In this document: positions 9,953-56,309 of the stretch, piece after piece
How positions within the stretch are numbered: the stretch's first letter is position 1
Layout: each line of letters starts with the position of its first letter
Source: Escherichia phage S143_2
Sequence record: MZ189261.1
Reading direction: 5' to 3' (one strand)
Length of the DNA stretch: 64,000 nt
Position numbers and translations under genes: made by a program
The notes under the pieces: model-generated
Seen by the model: the letters and a program-made list of their open reading frames with translations, nothing else
Databases searched by the model: none
What the model was told of the DNA's origin: nothing

Positions 9953-11467
9953 ATGACTGACATTAAAGTACATTTTTATGATTTTAGTCACGTGCGCATT
10001 GAATGCGACGAAAGTACGTTTTACGAACTTCGTGACTTTTTTAGTTTTGAAGCTGACGGGTATAAATTTAACCCAAAATATCGCTATGGGCAATGGGATG
10101 GTAGAATTCGACTTTTAGATTACAATCGTTTGTTACCATATGGACTTGTAGGACAAATAAAAAAGTTCTGTAACAATATGAGTTATTCTGTATGGATTGA
10201 CCCTAAAATCTTTGAGACTGAAGACCTTACCAGGGAAGATTTTGACGCATGGCTTTCTAAACAAGAAATTTATTCGGGCAACGCCAAAATCGAACCACAT
10301 TGGTATCAAAAAGATGCAGTATACGAAGGATTAGTTAATCGTCGTCGAATTTTAAACCTTCCGACATCAGCAGGTAAATCACTAATCCAAGCACTTTTAG
10401 CTCGATATTATCTAGAGAACTATGAAGGTAAAATTCTCATTATCGTCCCTACAACAGCATTGACAACCCAGATGGCTAATGATTTTGTTGATTATCGCTT
10501 GTTTAGTCATTCGATGATTAAGAAAATTGGCGGTGGTGCTGATAAAGCGGACAGAGCTAAAAACGACGCTCCAATTATTGTTGGCACATGGCAAACAGTA
10601 GTTAAGCAGCCTAAAGAATGGTTCTCTCAATTCGGTATGATGATGAACGATGAATGCCACTTAGCGACAGGCAAAAGTATTTCTTCAATCATCTCAGGAT
10701 TAAATAATTGCATGTTTAAATTCGGTTTATCTGGCTCATTAAGAGACGGAAAAGCCAATGTAATGCAGTATGTAGGTATGTTCGGTGAAATCTTCCGTCC
10801 TGTTAGCACGTCTAAATTAATGGAAGATGGACAGGTAACTGAGCTTAAGATTAATAGTATTTTCCTTCGTTATCCAGATGAATTCGCCATTAAATTAAAA
10901 GGTAAAACATACCAAGAAGAAGTTAAAATTATTACCGGACTAAAACGTCGTACAAAGTGGATTGCTCAACTTTCAGTCAAATTGGCTAAGAAAGACGAGA
11001 ACGCCTTTGTAATGTTTAAACACGTTACACACGGTAAAGAAATATTTGAAGCTATTAAAGAGCTTGGATACGAAAAAGTTTATTACGTATCAGGTGAAGT
11101 TGATACTGAAACACGTAACGCGCTTAAAGTCATGGCAGAAAATGGTAAAGGCATTATTATTGTCGCATCATACGGAGTATTCTCTACTGGTATTTCAGTC
11201 AAGAATCTTCATCATGTTATTTTTGCTCATGGTGTTAAATCAAAAATTATCGTACTTCAAACCGTAGGTCGTGTGCTTCGTAAGCATGGTTCTAAAGCTG
11301 TTGCTACAGTTTGGGATCTCATCGATGACGCAGGTGTAAAACCTAAATCATTAAATACTAAAAAGAAGTATACTCATCTTAATTACTTGTTAAAACACGG
11401 TATTGATCGTATCCAACGTTACGCTGATGAGAAATTTAACTATGTAATGAAAACAATTAATTTATAA
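9953..11467 (+). CDS. uvsW: UvsW DNA/RNA helicase
   Basis: 504 aa; SF2 helicase motifs (Walker A PTSAGKS, DECH box MMNDECH); late promoter upstream. Confidence 0.9.
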   Translation: MTDIKVHFYDFSHVRIECDESTFYELRDFFSFEADGYKFNPKYRYGQWDGRIRLLDYNRLLPYGLVGQIKKFCNNMSYSVWIDPKIFETEDLTREDFDAWLSKQEIYSGNAKIEPHWYQKDAVYEGLVNRRRILNLPTSAGKSLIQALLARYYLENYEGKILIIVPTTALTTQMANDFVDYRLFSHSMIKKIGGGADKADRAKNDAPIIVGTWQTVVKQPKEWFSQFGMMMNDECHLATGKSISSIISGLNNCMFKFGLSGSLRDGKANVMQYVGMFGEIFRPVSTSKLMEDGQVTELKINSIFLRYPDEFAIKLKGKTYQEEVKIITGLKRRTKWIAQLSVKLAKKDENAFVMFKHVTHGKEIFEAIKELGYEKVYYVSGEVDTETRNALKVMAENGKGIIIVASYGVFSTGISVKNLHHVIFAHGVKSKIIVLQTVGRVLRKHGSKAVATVWDLIDDAGVKPKSLNTKKKYTHLNYLLKHGIDRIQRYADEKFNYVMKTINL

Positions 11468-11492
11468 GGGCTTCGGCCCTTAGGAGATAAAA

Positions 11493-26848: not shown

Positions 26849-26883
26849 AATTTCCTCAGTGGGAGCCGAAGCTCCCAGTTAAA

Positions 26884-35935: not shown

Positions 35936-36345
35936 TACTTTTTCTTATGTTGGATATTCCAAGGCGGGTTGAACTTTTTGATAAAAAGCGGTTCTTCAAG
36001 GTCCATTGTTGCGATGGTCATTGAACCAAGTTCGTTGGTGACTGAAAGGTCAAAACATTGGCGGGCCCAGAATTCAACCTTTTTGCCTTGCATTAAGGCA
36101 TCCAAAATCATAAGTGATTTTCTTGAATCTGAAGTCTGGTCTTTTCGATTTATGGCTGTTCGATAATAGTTAATGCGTTTCTTTAAATTCTTGGTTTTAC
36201 CAATATACACAAGTTCGTCATCTATAGCAATAGCGTATATGACATTTTTCTTATTAGGGACATCAACTGTTTTAATTGTTGCATCTTCTAATAGCTCCAA
36301 TTCTGTATATTTAATAAAGGAATATTCGGCGGCAATATCTTTCAT
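35935..36345 (-). CDS. denA: Endonuclease II (GIY-YIG family)
   Basis: 136 aa (T4 EndoII 136 aa); GIY-YIG-like motif VIYAIAIDDELVYIGKT...R..YY; T4 synteny. Confidence 0.7.
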   Translation of the reverse strand: MKDIAAEYSFIKYTELELLEDATIKTVDVPNKKNVIYAIAIDDELVYIGKTKNLKKRINYYRTAINRKDQTSDSRKSLMILDALMQGKKVEFWARQCFDLSVTNELGSMTIATMDLEEPLFIKKFNPPWNIQHKKK

Positions 36346-36367
36346 AATAAAGTGGGACCGAAGTCCC
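36346..36367 (-). terminator. Intercistronic hairpin between nrdB and denA (possible attenuator)
   Basis: GGGAC-UUCG-GUCCC on - strand RNA followed by U-rich tract; lies between nrdB stop and denA start. Confidence 0.45.
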
Positions 36368-36371
36368 GTCC

Positions 36372-37511
36372 TTAGAAATATTTTTTGTATGAATTGATTA
36401 CATTTTGGTCTACATCATTATCAATTTGTGCGACAAGATAAGAACTGATTTCAACTTCCTGAGGAGCTGCTTGAACTAAATCAGAGTTCAGATATTCACG
36501 AATCCAAGGATACGGATGCTTGGTCGGAGCATCAGTGATTGGGCAGGGCAAACCACACTGTTTCATACGAGACACAGTCAAGTAATCAACAAAAGCACAC
36601 ATACTCTGCGTATTGATACCTGGACATGTACCGTCTTTAAAGAGGTGTGCAGCCCATTCCTTCTCTTGACGGTTAACTTCCATAAAAATGTCAACTGCTT
36701 CTTGTTCACATTCTTTAGCAATTTGAACCCACTCATCGCCGTCAATACCAGATTGAAGTTGACGAATAATGTACTGAGTACCCTTGAGGTGGAGTTGTTC
36801 GTCACGAGCAATGAACTTCATAATCTTTGCATTACCTTCCATAATTTCCATATTTTTATGGAAGTTGAAAGTACATGCAAATGATACGTAAAAACGAATA
36901 GCTTCCAGAGCGTTGATTACGTGCAGACAGAGGTAAAGAGAACGCATTAGTTCGTATTTAGCCTGTTTTACGCCTTCGCTAAACTCGTGATATTCTTCTA
37001 AAGCATTCTGGTAAAGGCGAGTCTTGACTAGAACATCATCGTAATATTTACCTATTGATTCAGCTCGTTTCATGATTGCTTCGTCTAATACAATTTCATC
37101 AAATACCTTAGATGGATCCGTATAAAGATTTCGCATAATATGAGTATACGAACGAGAGTGAATAGTTTCACTGAATGTCCATGTTGCAACCCACGTATCT
37201 AATGAAGGGTCGGAAATCAGTGCCATAAGTACCGCAGATGGGGCCCTGCCTTGGATAGAATCTAATAATGATTGATACTTAAGATTGTTTGTAAAGATGT
37301 CCTGTTGGAACTGAGGAAGCTTATTGAACTGCGCAGAGTCCAACATCAAGTTTACCTCTTCTGGGCGCCAAAAAAACGATAATTGCTTTTCGGTCAAATC
37401 TTCAAAAACTTTATGGCGTTGAATATCATAACGCGCAATACCAAGACCAGAACCAAAGAACATCGGTTCATTCAAAACATCGACTTGTTGTGTGTTAAAA
37501 ACTGTACTCAT
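36372..37511 (-). CDS. nrdB: Ribonucleotide reductase small subunit NrdB (uninterrupted)
   Basis: 379 aa contiguous ORF; T4 synteny. Confidence 0.9.
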   Translation of the reverse strand: MSTVFNTQQVDVLNEPMFFGSGLGIARYDIQRHKVFEDLTEKQLSFFWRPEEVNLMLDSAQFNKLPQFQQDIFTNNLKYQSLLDSIQGRAPSAVLMALISDPSLDTWVATWTFSETIHSRSYTHIMRNLYTDPSKVFDEIVLDEAIMKRAESIGKYYDDVLVKTRLYQNALEEYHEFSEGVKQAKYELMRSLYLCLHVINALEAIRFYVSFACTFNFHKNMEIMEGNAKIMKFIARDEQLHLKGTQYIIRQLQSGIDGDEWVQIAKECEQEAVDIFMEVNRQEKEWAAHLFKDGTCPGINTQSMCAFVDYLTVSRMKQCGLPCPITDAPTKHPYPWIREYLNSDLVQAAPQEVEISSYLVAQIDNDVDQNVINSYKKYF

Positions 37512-46173: not shown

Positions 46174-46181
46174 TATAAATA
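46174..46181 (+). promoter_or_regulatory. Late promoter TATAAATA (gene 34)
   Basis: Exact motif 31 nt upstream of gene 34 ATG. Confidence 0.55.
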
Positions 46182-51228: not shown

Positions 51229-51252
51229 GGGAGACTTCGGTCTCCCATTTTT
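51229..51252 (+). terminator. Terminator after gene 35
   Basis: GGGAGAC-UUCG-GUCUCCC followed by ATTTTT. Confidence 0.65.
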
Positions 51253-51253
51253 G

Positions 51254-51261
51254 TATAAATA
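51254..51261 (+). promoter_or_regulatory. Late promoter TATAAATA (gene 36)
   Basis: Exact motif 25 nt upstream of gene 36 ATG. Confidence 0.55.
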
Positions 51262-51956: not shown

Positions 51957-54900
51957 ATGGCTACATTAAAACAGATACAATTTAAAAGAAGCAAAGTAGC
52001 AGGAGTTAATCCTACTGCAGCACAATTAGCCGAAGGCGAATTAGCGATAAACTTAAAAGATCGAACTCTTTTTACTAAAGATGACCTCGGTAATATTATT
52101 AGCCTAGGCTTTGCTAAGGGCGGGGATATTAACGGTAATGTAACTCAAAATGGAGATTATTTACAGAACGGTACATATAATCTCAATGGAAACCAGTTTG
52201 TTTATGCAGGAAAATATATTGAATTTTTACCTAAAACTGCAGGCAATGGTGCTTGGGCTAACCAACATCTGAATAAAGCTCCTATCTTTACAGATTTGAG
52301 TTCAACTACTTCTGTTTCAGAATATCATCCGCTGATTAAACAACGCTATAAAGATGGAACTTTTTCTGTTGGTACGTTAGTAAACGAAGGAAGTTTTAAA
52401 ATTCATTTTATGAATGAATCTGGTGATTCGAAATATTGGACGTTTCGCCGTGACGGTGGATTTACTGTTGATGGTGGAGGTTTAGCAGTATCAGGAGGTA
52501 GTATAACTACATCTGGAAATATTGCAGCTCTCGGAAATATTACTTCGCCTCAGATTAATACTAAAAATATTATTTTAGACACAAAAGCATTCGGACAATA
52601 TGATTCACAGTCATTAGTTCAATATGTTTATCCTGGAACAGGTGAAGAAAATGGTATAAACTATCTTCGTAAAGTTCGAGCTAAATCAGGCGGAACTATT
52701 TACCATGAAATTGCTTCTGCGCAGACTGGTAAGAATGATGAAATTTCTTGGTGGACCGGAAATACACTTACCACTAAATTAATGGGTCTTCGTAATGATG
52801 GCGCAATGGTATTACGTCGTTCACTTGCTATTGGCACAATTACCACTGATGAAAATACTAACAACTATGGCTCTCCTACTCCAATGGGAGAAAGATATAT
52901 TGCTTTAGGTGATGCCGCCACTGGTTTAAAATACATTAAGCAGGGTGTTTATGATTTAGTAGGTAATTGGAATTCTGTTGCTTCTATTACTCCTGACAGT
53001 TTCCGTAGTACTCGTAAAGCATTATTTGGACGCTCAGAAGACCAAGGCGGAACCTGGTCAATGCCTGGCACTAATGCCGCTTTCTTGTCTGTTCAAACAC
53101 AAGCTGATAATAACAATGCTGGAGACGGCCAGACACATATTGGTTATAACTCCGGTGGAAAAATGTCGCACTATTTCCGTGGTACAGGTCAGATGAATAT
53201 CAATACCCAACAAGGTATGGAAATTAACCCGGGTATTTTGAAATTGGTAACTGGCTCTAATAATGTACAGTTTTATGCTGACGGCACTATTTCTTCTATT
53301 CAATCTATTAAATTGGATAATGAGATATTTTTAAATAACTCTAATAATATTGCAGGCCTTAAATTTGGCGCCCCTAGCAAAGTTGATGGAACAAGAGCTA
53401 TCCAATGGAACGGTGGTACTCGCGAAGGACAGAATAAAAACTATGTGATTATTAAAGCATGGGGTAACTCATTTAATGCCGCTGGTGATAGATCTCGCGA
53501 AACGGTTTTCCAAGTATCAGATAGACAAGGATATTATTTTTATGCTCATCGTAAAGCTCCAACCGGCGACGAAACTATTGGACGTATTGAAGCTCAGTTT
53601 GCTGGAGAACTTAATGCTAAAAGTATTAATGCCATCGAAAATTTTAAAGTTAATGGGTCAAGCACTTTAGTCGGTAATGTTACCGTGTCTAATGGTTTGT
53701 TTGTCCAAGGTGGTTCTTCTATTACCGGCCAAGTTAAAATCGGCGAAACTGGCGACGCATTAAGAATTTGGAATGCCGAATATGGCGCTATTTTCCGTCG
53801 TTCAGAAGATAAGCTTTATATTATTCCAACTGCGCAAAATGCTGGTGAATCAGGTGATATTTCTAATTTACGTCCGTTCTATATTACATTAAGTAACGGT
53901 AAAGTTGTCATGGGTCATGATGTAGATATCGGTGGCGGTAGATTTAAAGTAGAAACTAGTGGAACAACATCAGGGCAAGCTATCACAATTAACGCTAATA
54001 ACGCCGCGCTTATTATTAACTCGGCTTCATCGACCAACGCTGTTTATATTCAGGGTAAAAAAGCTAATACGGTTAAATGGTACGTTGGTAATGGGAGTGG
54101 TAGTTCAGATGAACTTAACTTATATAATAATGCATTAGGTCATGGGGTTGCATTTAGAACCGACGATGTTCTTTTTTCAAAACCATTAAAAGTTGGTAAT
54201 GCTCAATTCGGTACTGACGGTAATATCACTGGTGGTTCTGGTAATTTTGCTAACTTGAATACCACAATAAATAACCTTAAGATAGATATTGTGTCGAGTT
54301 ATCCAATTGGTGCTCCGATTCCTTGGCCTACTGATACACCTCCTGAAGGTTATGCCATCATGGAAGGCCAGACGTTTGATACTGACTTGTATCCTAAGTT
54401 AGCTGCGGTGTATCCTTCCGGCGCTCTGCCTGATATGCGTGGTCAAACTATCAAGGGTAAACCATCTGGGCGTGATGTATTAAGTACAGAAGCAGACGGT
54501 GTTAAGTCACATAGCCATAGTGCAAGTGCGTCAAGCACGGATTTAGGTACTAAGACCACTTCTAGTTTTGATTACGGTAGCAAAACGACTTCAAGCTTTG
54601 ATTATGGTACTAAAACCAGTAATACTACTGGTAACCATAACCATACAGTGAGTGGTAATACTAGTGCCGCTGGTAACCACCGGCACTCACAAACTGGCCC
54701 AAGGGGTCCTAATAACCAACCAACAGGAATATATCCTAATGGAGCTACTGCAATTAGTGGATCCCAGGTTCTTTCTTTTGCCACAAGCAACAAAATCGTG
54801 CCTGGTATAGGCCAATATATTGCAAAGTCATCGACAGAAGGTAACCATACCCACTCTTGGTCAGGAACTACTAGCACCACAGGTAACCATGCCCACACTG

Positions 54901-55058
54901 TCGGTATTGGTGCACATACACATACTGTAGGCATAGGTGCTCATACTCACACGGTAGCTATTGGTTCCCATGGTCATACAATAACCGTAAATGCCACAGG
55001 AAATACAGAAAACACAGTTAAAAACGTTGCTTTTAACTATATCGTTCGTTTAGCATAA
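51957..55058 (+). CDS. 37: Long tail fibre distal subunit gp37 (receptor-binding tip, T4 type)
   Basis: 1033 aa (T4 gp37 1026 aa); C-terminal His-rich HxH repeats and conserved terminal sequence ...[17 protein letters not shown]. Confidence 0.9.
54546..54620 (+). repeat. In-frame tandem 30-bp repeat in gp37 tip region ([11 protein letters not shown] x 2.5)
   Basis: Units at 54546..54575 and 54576..54605 plus partial third; encode [10 protein letters not shown] / [10 protein letters not shown] / GTKTSNTTG. Confidence 0.7.
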
Positions 55059-55091
55059 GGAGAAGGGACTTCGGTCCCTTTTTATAATATG
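55057..55091 (+). promoter_or_regulatory. Gene 38 translation initiation region: SD AAGGAG separated from AUG by a CUUCGG hairpin
   Basis: AAGGAG at 55057..55062 overlaps gene 37 stop; hairpin GGGAC-UUCG-GUCCC at 55065..55078; ATG at 55089; folding would shorten effective SD-AUG spacing. Confidence 0.5.
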
Positions 55092-55640
55092 AAACTCTAT
55101 CACTATTATTTTGACACTAAAGAATTTTACAAAGAAGAAAATTATAAACCATTAAAAGGCGTAGGATTTCCGGCTCATTCGACACCAAAAAAACCTTTAG
55201 ACCCTAAAGAAGGCTATGCTGTTGTATTTGATGAACGCGAACAAGAATGGGTATATGTTGAAGACCATCGTGGAAAAACAGTATGGACTTATGATAAGCA
55301 AAAAATTGTTATTGACACTCCAGGTGCTCTTCAAAATGTTACTACAGAAGAACCTGGTGAATTTGACATTTGGACCGACGACGGGTGGAAGGAAGATGAA
55401 GCGTATAAACGCGTAGTTCAACGTGATAGGAAAATTCATGAACTCTATAAATTATTCAGTGTTTTAAGTTCTCTTATTGGCGCAGAGGTTGCTAATAGAG
55501 AAGAAAAACGAAAATTTAAAGAGCTCAAAAAATTCTTTGCCCTTTTAGAAAAACATGAACATCTTGGCGGTGAATTCCCTAAATTCCCTGACCTTGAAAA
55601 CAAATCTATTGTCAAAGCGATTATAAATATCTTTAAGTAA
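55089..55640 (+). CDS. 38: Tail fibre assembly chaperone gp38 (T4 type)
   Basis: 183 aa (T4 gp38 183 aa); N-terminus MKLYHYYFDTKEFYKEENYKP matches T4 gp38 as remembered. Confidence 0.8.
   Translation: MKLYHYYFDTKEFYKEENYKPLKGVGFPAHSTPKKPLDPKEGYAVVFDEREQEWVYVEDHRGKTVWTYDKQKIVIDTPGALQNVTTEEPGEFDIWTDDGWKEDEAYKRVVQRDRKIHELYKLFSVLSSLIGAEVANREEKRKFKELKKFFALLEKHEHLGGEFPKFPDLENKSIVKAIINIFK
55622..55629 (+). promoter_or_regulatory. Late promoter TATAAATA inside 3' end of gene 38 (holin t)
   Basis: Exact motif 21 nt upstream of t ATG. Confidence 0.55.
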
Positions 55641-55649
55641 GGAGGTATT

Positions 55650-56309
55650 ATGGCAACACCAAAAGTATCATTTTCACTTAGTGATATTCTATTTGGGTTG
55701 CTAGATCGTATTTTCAAAGATAACGCTACTGGAAAGGTTTTAATGTCCCGAGTAGCGGTAATTATTCTTTTGTTCCTAATGGCACTAATATGGTACAAAG
55801 GAAGTATTTTGCTGGATTATTATGTAAGAGCTAAGTATGATACTTATACTGAAATAATCCAAAAAGAACGAGCTTTACGTTTTGAATCTGCGGCTCTAGA
55901 ACAACTGCAAATAGTTCATATCTCATCTGGTGCAGATTTTAGTGCTGTGTATTCTTTCAGACCTAAAAACTTAAATTATTTCGTCGACCTTATAGCTTAC
56001 GAAGGCAAACTACCTAGCACAATTTCTGAAAAGTCCCTTGGCGGATTCCCTGTGGATAAAACGGCCAATGAATATATAATTCATTTAAGTGGCCGTCATT
56101 TCTCATCTAAATCAGAATTTGCATTTTTGCCTACAAAATCTAAGACTGCCGAACTTTCTTATATGTATAGTTGTCCATACTTTAATTTGGATAACATCTA
56201 TGCTGGGACTGTGACGATGTATTGGTATAAGGGGAGTAATATACTTGAGGAGGATCGCTTAGCTGCTATATGCAACCAAGCGGTCCGAATACTAGGAAGG
56301 GCTAAATAA
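55650..56309 (+). CDS. t: Holin T
   Basis: 219 aa; single N-terminal TM segment and large periplasmic domain; close match to T4 T as remembered; late promoter at 55622..55629. Confidence 0.9.
   Translation: MATPKVSFSLSDILFGLLDRIFKDNATGKVLMSRVAVIILLFLMALIWYKGSILLDYYVRAKYDTYTEIIQKERALRFESAALEQLQIVHISSGADFSAVYSFRPKNLNYFVDLIAYEGKLPSTISEKSLGGFPVDKTANEYIIHLSGRHFSSKSEFAFLPTKSKTAELSYMYSCPYFNLDNIYAGTVTMYWYKGSNILEEDRLAAICNQAVRILGRAK

Follow-up and report, generated by a model that had tools for sequence, protein, structure and literature searches.

The gene 37/38 junction

The window analyzed here is a stretch of 64,000 nucleotides of Escherichia phage S143_2 (MZ189261.1). Its tail fibre region follows the order 34-35-36-37-38-t-asiA, which is the same as in T4, and a 24-kb stretch of the window is 96-98% identical to Mosigvirus genomes, e.g., those of phi25-307, HX01, and DCP548. 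This report concerns the short interval between genes 37 and 38, in which the following elements, all on the plus strand, can be distinguished.

51957-55058, plus strand: gene 37, distal long tail fibre subunit (open reading frame; product name from related records)
55056-55058, plus strand: gene 37 stop codon TAA, read from the sequence
55056-55062, plus strand: Shine-Dalgarno sequence (SD) UAAGGAG, overlapping the gene 37 stop; its AAGGAG part occupies 55057-55062
55065-55078, plus strand: core hairpin GGGAC-UUCG-GUCCC, 5 bp with a C(UUCG)G tetraloop (sequence and fold)
55060-55083, plus strand: predicted extended helix, 10 bp, in which GAGAA (55060-55064) pairs with UUUUU (55079-55083) (minimum free energy (MFE) and centroid folds; pair probabilities 0.90-1.0)
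55079-55083, plus strand: U5 tract directly 3′ of the core stem, a possible terminator tail (sequence)
55084-55088, plus strand: AUAAU, the 5 nt predicted to stay single-stranded between the extended helix and the AUG
55089-55640, plus strand: gene 38, T4-type tail fibre assembly chaperone of 183 aa, with its ATG at 55089-55091 (open reading frame)

The junction reads GCA TAA GGAG AA GGGAC UUCG GUCCC UUUUU AUAAU AUG on the plus strand. The spacer between the SD and the ATG of gene 38 is 26 nt long (55063-55088), which exceeds the limit of approximately 15 nt; at 26 nt, an SD is too far from its start codon for direct initiation. The region upstream of the gene was scanned with a sliding duplex against the 3′ end of 16S rRNA, which we take to be ACCUCCUUA. 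The strongest anti-SD duplex in the 50 nt upstream of gene 38 (-9.3 kcal/mol) is located at 55055-55063, and the scan revealed no nearer SD for this gene, as no 9-mer starting at or beyond 55074 reaches -2 kcal/mol. The claim of the initial annotation that AAGGAG at 55057-55062 is the sole good SD of gene 38, 26 nt from its ATG, is therefore correct, coordinates included.

Gene 38 begins 30 nt after the gene 37 stop codon, and the 10 nt that precede its AUG consist of A and U only (the UUUUUAUAAU tract). The TAA at 55056 and the gene 38 ATG share a reading frame, with ten codons between them; no ATG, GTG, or TTG that could provide an alternative start occurs among these ten in-frame codons. 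The in-frame arrangement of stop and start here raised the possibility of a gp37-gp38 read-through fusion, which was rejected because relatives do not preserve the frame: NC_000866.4 has a gap of 26 nt, and in phage LF82-41 31 nt are counted from the T of TAA up to the nucleotide that precedes the ATG. In tblastn comparisons, the gene 38 product shows 68% identity to T4 gp38 (residues 1-179) and 96-99% identity to the gp38 of Mosigvirus phages. Its N-terminus, MK(L/I)YHYYFDTKEF, is conserved from residue 1, and its match to the Pfam family Caudo_TAP is weak, below the curated cut-off. No Rfam family matches positions 54500-55700.

Predicted fold of the junction

The CUUCGG hairpin was found exactly where it had initially been annotated, at 55065-55078 between the SD and the ATG, and the pairing probability of its core stem is 1.0 in contexts of 135, 285, and 535 nt. 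The predicted energy of the 41-nt element is -15.5 kcal/mol (z = -4.2), and an equally stable fold was obtained for 0 of 200 shuffled sequences. Predicted helix energies are -13.2 kcal/mol for the 10-bp helix, -10.0 for a 7-bp helix, and -7.5 for the core alone, the extension thus being worth approximately 3 kcal/mol. In free RNA, the extended helix is predicted to pair the last three bases of the SD, weakly, until the ribosome binds. It should be noted that the extended helix is absent from the RNAalifold consensus.

When the SD and the AUG are constrained to be unpaired, a 7-bp hairpin (55063-55080) is predicted to remain, which leaves 8 nt (55081-55088) before the AUG; the full 10-bp helix would leave 5 nt between its base and the AUG. 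These predictions are in line with the proposal made at the outset that folding of the hairpin brings the SD and the start codon to a functional spacing.

The start codon itself may be involved in another, weak pairing. In a predicted 4-bp outer helix, CAUA/UAUG, formed by 55054-55057 with 55088-55091, the last bases of gene 37 pair with the start codon of gene 38; the helix is present in the MFE folds of the window, T4, and phage DCP80, and not in that of LF82-41. The gene 38 AUG has an unpaired probability of only 0.12-0.28 in the longer contexts.

Correspondence with T4 gene 38 and other known systems

The hairpin at T4 gene 38 reduces the distance between the SD and the AUG from 22 nt to 5 nt, which is functional, and mutations that destabilize the intervening structure lower initiation at both T4 gene 38 and T4 gene 25 (PMC3014915). 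The same account of T4 gene 38, with reference to Gold 1988 and Nivinskas 1999, is given in PMC7297116, where such sites are termed non-contiguous, or split. At the 26-25 junction of T4, a hairpin shortens the distance for gene 25 from 27 nt to 11 nt and efficient expression depends on it; close T-even phages have conserved this hairpin, and distant relatives lack it (PMC3014915).

The T4 37/38 junction in record KJ477684 reads TAAGGAG A GGGGC UUCG GCCCC UUCUAAAU AUG, with a spacing of 23 nt. The junction in the T4 RefSeq record, NC_000866.4, has one C fewer and a spacing of 22 nt, which is the figure given in the literature. The difference lies in the 3′ arm, which is GCCC in NC_000866.4 (L022 9620-9652) and GCCCC in T4 ‘wild’ KJ477684 (L003 1470-1503), so that the shorter arm forms a G-U closing pair instead of G-C; the strains may differ at this point, or the hairpin, being very stable, may have caused a compression in the older sequencing.

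The window and T4 share the 37/38 locus with near-identical flanks, a UAAGGAG that overlaps the gene 37 stop, a 5-bp G/C-rich stem with a C(UUCG)G loop, and the same T4-type chaperone gene downstream. They differ in spacing, which is 26 nt in the window as opposed to 22 (NC_000866.4) or 23 nt (KJ477684) in T4; in stem pair 4, which is A-U in the window and G-C in T4; and in an extra A before the stem and the U5 tract after it, which in the window add A-U pairs and a terminator-like tail. The match to the T4 gene 38 arrangement, noted in the initial annotation, is borne out by the aligned flanks, the 68% identity of gp38, and the published descriptions (PMC3014915; PMC7297116).

Other systems resemble the junction in part. 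The split initiation region of T4 gene 25 (Nivinskas 1999; Malys and Nivinskas 2009) likewise has a hairpin between the SD and the AUG (PMC3014915), but it is located at another locus, outside the window, and its hairpin is unrelated. The E. coli thrS leader (Sacerdot et al. 1998, per PMC7297116) is similar in that a stable hairpin that interrupts the ribosome-binding region is tolerated by the 30S subunit. The thrS hairpin, however, is a repressor operator upstream of a normally spaced SD, whereas that of gene 38 lies between the SD and the AUG and has no known protein ligand.

Comparison of 37/38 junctions among related phages

Relatives were taken from the GenBank phage collection, and approximately 30 regions were retrieved, out of roughly 1000 Tevenvirinae genomes; scans of IMG/VR with the gp38 protein and the 3′ end of gene 37 gave 2-3 loci. 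A 75-nt junction query identified 208 phage records with a homologous junction, 24 of them at 99% identity or above, 70 at 95-99%, and 108 at 80-90%, the last corresponding to the T4 type. A chance origin of the junction element was rejected on the grounds of orthology, the shuffles, and these 208 homologous junctions. Ten distinct junctions, grouped by type, were compared for stem pairing.

Window type: the window, an IMG/VR contig (L001), and O157 typing phage 3 (L021)
T4 type: T4, VR25, PhiZZ30, DCP80, and S1P5QW
LF82-41: a stem variant of its own
Moon: SD located 3′ of the hairpin

In each of the ten junctions, every pair of the 5-bp stem can form (50 of 50 stem cells). Pair 4 is G-C in six of them (T4, VR25, PhiZZ30, DCP80, S1P5QW, and Moon), A-U in the three of the window type, and C-G in LF82-41, while the other four pairs are invariant. 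The covariation score of the stem was matched by only 1 of 500 shuffles, in a set of related sequences, which can covary without constraint. With one variable pair of five, the compensatory support that these alignments offer for the 37/38 stem is modest. The GGAG of the SD is invariant in 9 of 9 split-type junctions compared, even though it lies outside the gene 37 coding sequence. The 3′ tail after the stem, on the other hand, varies in both sequence and length (TTCTAAAT, TTCTGAAT, TTCTGAAC, TTTTGAAT, TTTATAATA, TTTTTATAAT).

The variants can also be compared by the residue, i.e., the number of SD-to-AUG nucleotides left after removal of the part of the helix that contains no SD bases.

T4: linear SD-to-AUG distance 22-23 nt, residue after folding 7 nt
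LF82-41: linear distance 24 nt, residue 8 nt
Window: linear distance 26 nt, residue 8 nt
O157 typing phage 3: linear distance 27 nt, residue 9 nt

The collapsed spacing, as predicted from the folds, is nearly constant across the split variants (7-9 nt) and is, in our opinion, more telling than the covariation. The three extra bases of the window type amount to one extra A-U pair and one tail base.

Several individual junctions deserve mention. In O157 typing phage 3 (KP869101.1; L021 256-312), the loop is changed from UUCG to UUAU and the U run contains an extra T; jointly, these changes place an AUG in the loop of the hairpin, in frame with gene 38 and 9 nt downstream of GGAG. In the record, gp38 starts at this AUG and is thereby longer by MSLFYN; the loop AUG may offer the phage another way of obtaining a start at normal spacing. 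IMG/VR contig 3300030021_000020 (L001 1466-1506) has a window-type junction with a UUCU loop and an intact stem; the exact UUCG tetraloop is therefore not strictly required. Phages JQD51 (L017 ~1440-1512) and JK45 (L008 ~240-312) encode gp38 proteins 92-96% identical to that of the window and carry a T4-type junction together with T4-like first codons of gp38, which indicates a recombination joint just inside gene 38.

Taken together, orthology, covariation, and geometry support the reading of the 37/38 element as a split translation initiation region, to which a function is assigned by reference to T4. We consider it probable, with good though not full confidence from the sequences compared, that the element is the split, or non-contiguous, initiation region of gene 38 and the ortholog of that in T4.

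A second split site between nrdB and denA

All start codons of the window were scanned for an architecture consisting of an SD, a hairpin, 3-13 nt, and the start, without a nearer SD. The real gene starts recovered by the scan were those of gene 38 and denA only. The features of the second locus are as follows.

36372-37511, minus strand: nrdB (open reading frame ending in UAA)
36345-36377, minus strand: nrdB/denA split site, with the nrdB stop TAA at 36374-36372, the hairpin at 36367-36354, and the denA ATG at 36345-36343

This junction reads UAAGGA C GGGAC-UUCG-GUCCC ACUUUAUU AUG, and its 14-nt hairpin is identical to that of the 37/38 junction. The protein encoded after nrdB is endonuclease II, which has a GIY-YIG domain and matches PDB 2wsh from residue 1. 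The corresponding T4 junction, UAAGGAG U GGGCC-GCAA-GGCCC AUUUUAUU AUG, has a different stem and a GNRA loop. The nrdB/denA architecture is conserved in 10 genera, with a linear spacing of 22-28 nt and without a nearer SD; beyond the window and T4, the eight genera are those of Klebsiella phage Roth21, Kanagawavirus, Winklervirus, Gelderlandvirus, Gaprivervirus, Marfavirus, Karamvirus, and Dhakavirus. In a loop-anchored alignment, the inner five pairs of the stem are always paired, compensatory changes occur in 5 of 7 pairs, and the covariation score was reached by no shuffle. As at the 37/38 junction, all nrdB/denA junctions examined have an SD that overlaps the stop codon.

The presence of the same architecture at nrdB/denA in 10 genera indicates that the design is in use in T4-like phages. 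Tentatively, and with rather less confidence than an even chance, we suggest that the combination of a stop-overlapping SD, a tetraloop hairpin, approximately 8 nt, and an AUG could be a recurrent translational device of Tevenvirinae that extends beyond genes 38 and 25. No description of the denA split site was found in the open-access literature, in which the T4 split sites named are those of genes 38 and 25, and the nrdB/denA site might be new to the literature.

The annotated starts of denA differ between records. The T4 RefSeq record NC_000866.4 (137951, minus strand; L023 3952) annotates denA from a GTG inside the hairpin, giving 144 aa, and the record of phage E33 (L031 301) from an ATG at the hairpin base; both starts directly abut the SD, with zero spacing. 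The conserved start is the downstream AUG, which gives 136 aa and from which PDB 2wsh aligns. It was probably the split site that led to erroneous starts in the T4 RefSeq and E33 records.

CUUCGG hairpins without a split site

CUUCGG hairpins with stems of at least 5 bp number 13 in the window, where 0.37 are expected from dinucleotide shuffles (approximately 35-fold over-representation); CTTCGG itself occurs 37 times, as compared with 16.0 expected.

CUUCGG hairpin sites in the window: 4719, 8072, 11465, 22535, 26860, 27804, 36354, 42910, 51229, 55060, 59169, 60691, 63035

The stems are 5-11 bp long and mostly intergenic, and several are followed by U runs. Two of the hairpins, at 11465-11482 (plus strand) and 26860-26877 (minus strand), directly precede a normally spaced SD. 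The 37/38 hairpin fits the class of T4-type intercistronic C(UUCG)G hairpins (Tuerk et al. 1988, per PMC4371310) in its loop and closing pair, G/C-rich stem, intergenic position, location on the transcribed strand, and over-representation. Unlike most members of this class in the window, which follow a gene or precede a normal SD, it lies between an SD and its AUG, a position shared only with the nrdB/denA hairpin. Another member, a 7-bp hairpin at 51229-51246 (plus strand), lies 3′ of gene 35, is followed by AUUUUU, and is terminator-like on both strands; the consensus of the gene 36 late promoter begins 8 nt past it, at 51254-51261, and the arrangement is the same in T4.

A hairpin without the split is also found after gene 37 itself. 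The T2 junction (PV648364.1, L032 4350-4260, minus strand) reads UAA AAGA GGGC-UUCG-GCCC UCU AAGGA UUUUUA AUG, and the T2 gp38 is an unrelated adhesin. The junction of phage Moon (L007 1464-1506) reads UAAUAGAUU GGGGC-UUCG-GCCCC UCU GAGGA AACU AUG. In both phages, the CUUCGG hairpin is kept 3′ of gene 37, and the SD is located downstream of the hairpin, 5-6 nt from the AUG. Judging from these junctions, the CUUCGG hairpin 3′ of gene 37 has a wider distribution than the split. It probably persists because of a role connected with the 3′ end of gene 37 or with intercistronic RNA in general; the split would then be a lineage-specific solution of Tequatrovirus, Mosigvirus, and Gaprivervirus phages with a T4-type gp38. 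Because the hairpin is present in the unsplit junctions of T2 and Moon, its conservation alone is no proof of a role in initiation. The T2 and Moon pattern suggests that split sites arise where an intercistronic hairpin already exists and an SD comes to lie on its side remote from the start codon.

Transcription across the junction

Whether the hairpin can terminate transcription depends on how gene 38 is transcribed, and the relevant promoters are the following.

51254-51261, plus strand: T4-type late promoter consensus TATAAATA upstream of gene 36 (exact-match scan; putative activity)
55622-55629, plus strand: late promoter consensus TATAAATA for the holin gene t (55650-56309), inside the end of gene 38 (exact-match scan)

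On the plus strand, exact matches to TATAAATA occur at 46174 (before gene 34), 51254 (gene 36), and 55622 (t) only; none is present between 51262 and 55089. Six sites with one mismatch, at 52347-54266, lie without exception over 800 nt ahead of gene 38. On the basis of the exact and one-mismatch scans, we rejected the idea that gene 38 has a separate late promoter. The T4 RefSeq record has the same late-promoter layout, including the position before t. Gene 38 is therefore transcribed through the hairpin, and any termination at the hairpin must be partial; t, which has the promoter at 55622, is independent of read-through of the hairpin, unlike gene 38.

These observations bear on the proposal that the hairpin with its U tract acts as the gene 37 terminator, a role that is possible at the level of sequence and would at most be partial. 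The hairpin may resemble an intrinsic terminator, with a G/C-rich stem followed by a U run 3′ of a long gene, and it is annotated by prediction as a putative terminator in the Mosigvirus records G2469 and NBG1. However, it has only five strong pairs and five U, and the downstream gene, lacking a late promoter, relies on read-through. The 37/38 hairpin is missing from the output of the terminator scan, probably because its U run becomes part of the extended stem. Nor is the U tract conserved, as the stem is followed by UUCU in T4 (UUCUAAAU), by UCUAAGGA in T2, and by UCUGAGGA in Moon. No RNA 3′-end mapping for the T4 37/38 junction was found in the literature. Attenuation or RNA stabilization by the hairpin is possible on these sequence features.

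A broader version of this proposal, in which the hairpin is primarily an RNA element of the end of gene 37, that is, a partial terminator and/or a barrier to 3′-exonucleases that stabilizes the 36-37 message, while its position between the SD and the AUG is secondary, seems to us a serious but somewhat doubtful alternative. It would account for the presence of the hairpin 3′ of gene 37 in T2 and Moon, whose SD comes after it, and for the 13 such hairpins of the window, mostly between genes and several with U runs; the terminator-like hairpin after gene 35, directly followed by a late promoter, is a similar case, and the U5 tract and the two putative terminator annotations agree with it as well. 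It is less easily reconciled with the promoter layout: the nearest exact TATAAATA upstream of gene 38 is at 51254, with the same layout in T4, and efficient termination would abolish expression of gene 38. The variation of the sequence after the stem (UUCU in T4, UCUAAGG in T2, UCUGAGG in Moon), the absence of the hairpin from the terminator scan, and the short stem, with five strong pairs and -7.5 kcal/mol for the core, also argue against it. It should be noted that an end-of-gene role is compatible with a split ribosome binding site, and the two could act together.

Proposed mechanism of gene 38 initiation

For the split site, the following sequence of events can be envisaged. Genes 36, 37, and 38 would be co-transcribed late from the promoter at 51254. 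The sole ribosome-docking sequence of gene 38, UAAGGAG, would be too far from the AUG, at 26 nt, for direct initiation, and the C(UUCG)G hairpin between them is predicted to be folded essentially always. Pairing of the 30S subunit with the SD would open the weak A-U/G-U extension and leave the 7-bp hairpin, which would loop out 18 nt and reduce the distance between the SD and the AUG to approximately 8 nt, a workable spacing. As the extension covers three bases of the SD, the hairpin probably both enables and tempers initiation, and tempered initiation would suit a chaperone needed in small amounts. On the strength of the T4 literature, the hairpin would be expected to improve gene 38 initiation. 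The A/U-rich tail and the nearby gene 37 stop codon nevertheless allow other initiation routes.

One such route, by which gene 38 would be translated mainly by termination-reinitiation from gene 37, with the SD holding the 30S subunit and the refolding hairpin delivering the AUG, we regard as unlikely. The geometry does suit it: in all split-type 37/38 and nrdB/denA junctions examined, the SD and the stop codon overlap (UAAGGAG); at gene 38, only 30 nt separate the stop codon and the AUG; and, given the size of the ribosome footprint, a terminating ribosome would have to unwind the 5′ arm of the hairpin. Against this, T2 and Moon have a normal SD after the hairpin, so coupling is not generally required at the junction, and in reviews, the T4 case is presented as initiation assisted by structure, without recourse to coupling (PMC3014915; PMC7297116).

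Tracts of A and U near start codons are known translational enhancers, and the 10 nt before the AUG are all A/U, but initiation that is independent of the SD and dependent on S1 via the U/A-rich UUUUUAUAAU, with AAGGAG incidental, is very improbable, given that GGAG is invariant in nine split junctions while the A/U tail varies, and that T2 and Moon replace the upstream SD with a downstream one instead of having none, which indicates that an SD is apparently needed at the junction.

Structure-assisted initiation at a split site thus remains the preferred reading of the 37/38 junction. The split site of gene 38 is itself already described biology in T4; the parts that might be new are the nrdB/denA site and the wider distribution of the hairpin relative to the split, and only these.

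Implications

Mosigvirus keeps the classic split ribosome binding site of T4 with a compensated stem and a longer spacer that is predicted to collapse to the same geometry, and its junction provides natural-variant support for the folding model. The result is also of practical value for annotation, in that gene finders misplace starts at split junctions, as in the gp38 of O157 typing phage 3 and the denA of the T4 RefSeq and E33 records. Together, the recurrence of the architecture at nrdB/denA and the wider occurrence of the hairpin than of the split would make T4-like phages a good natural series for understanding how ribosomes accommodate a hairpin between the SD and the start codon.
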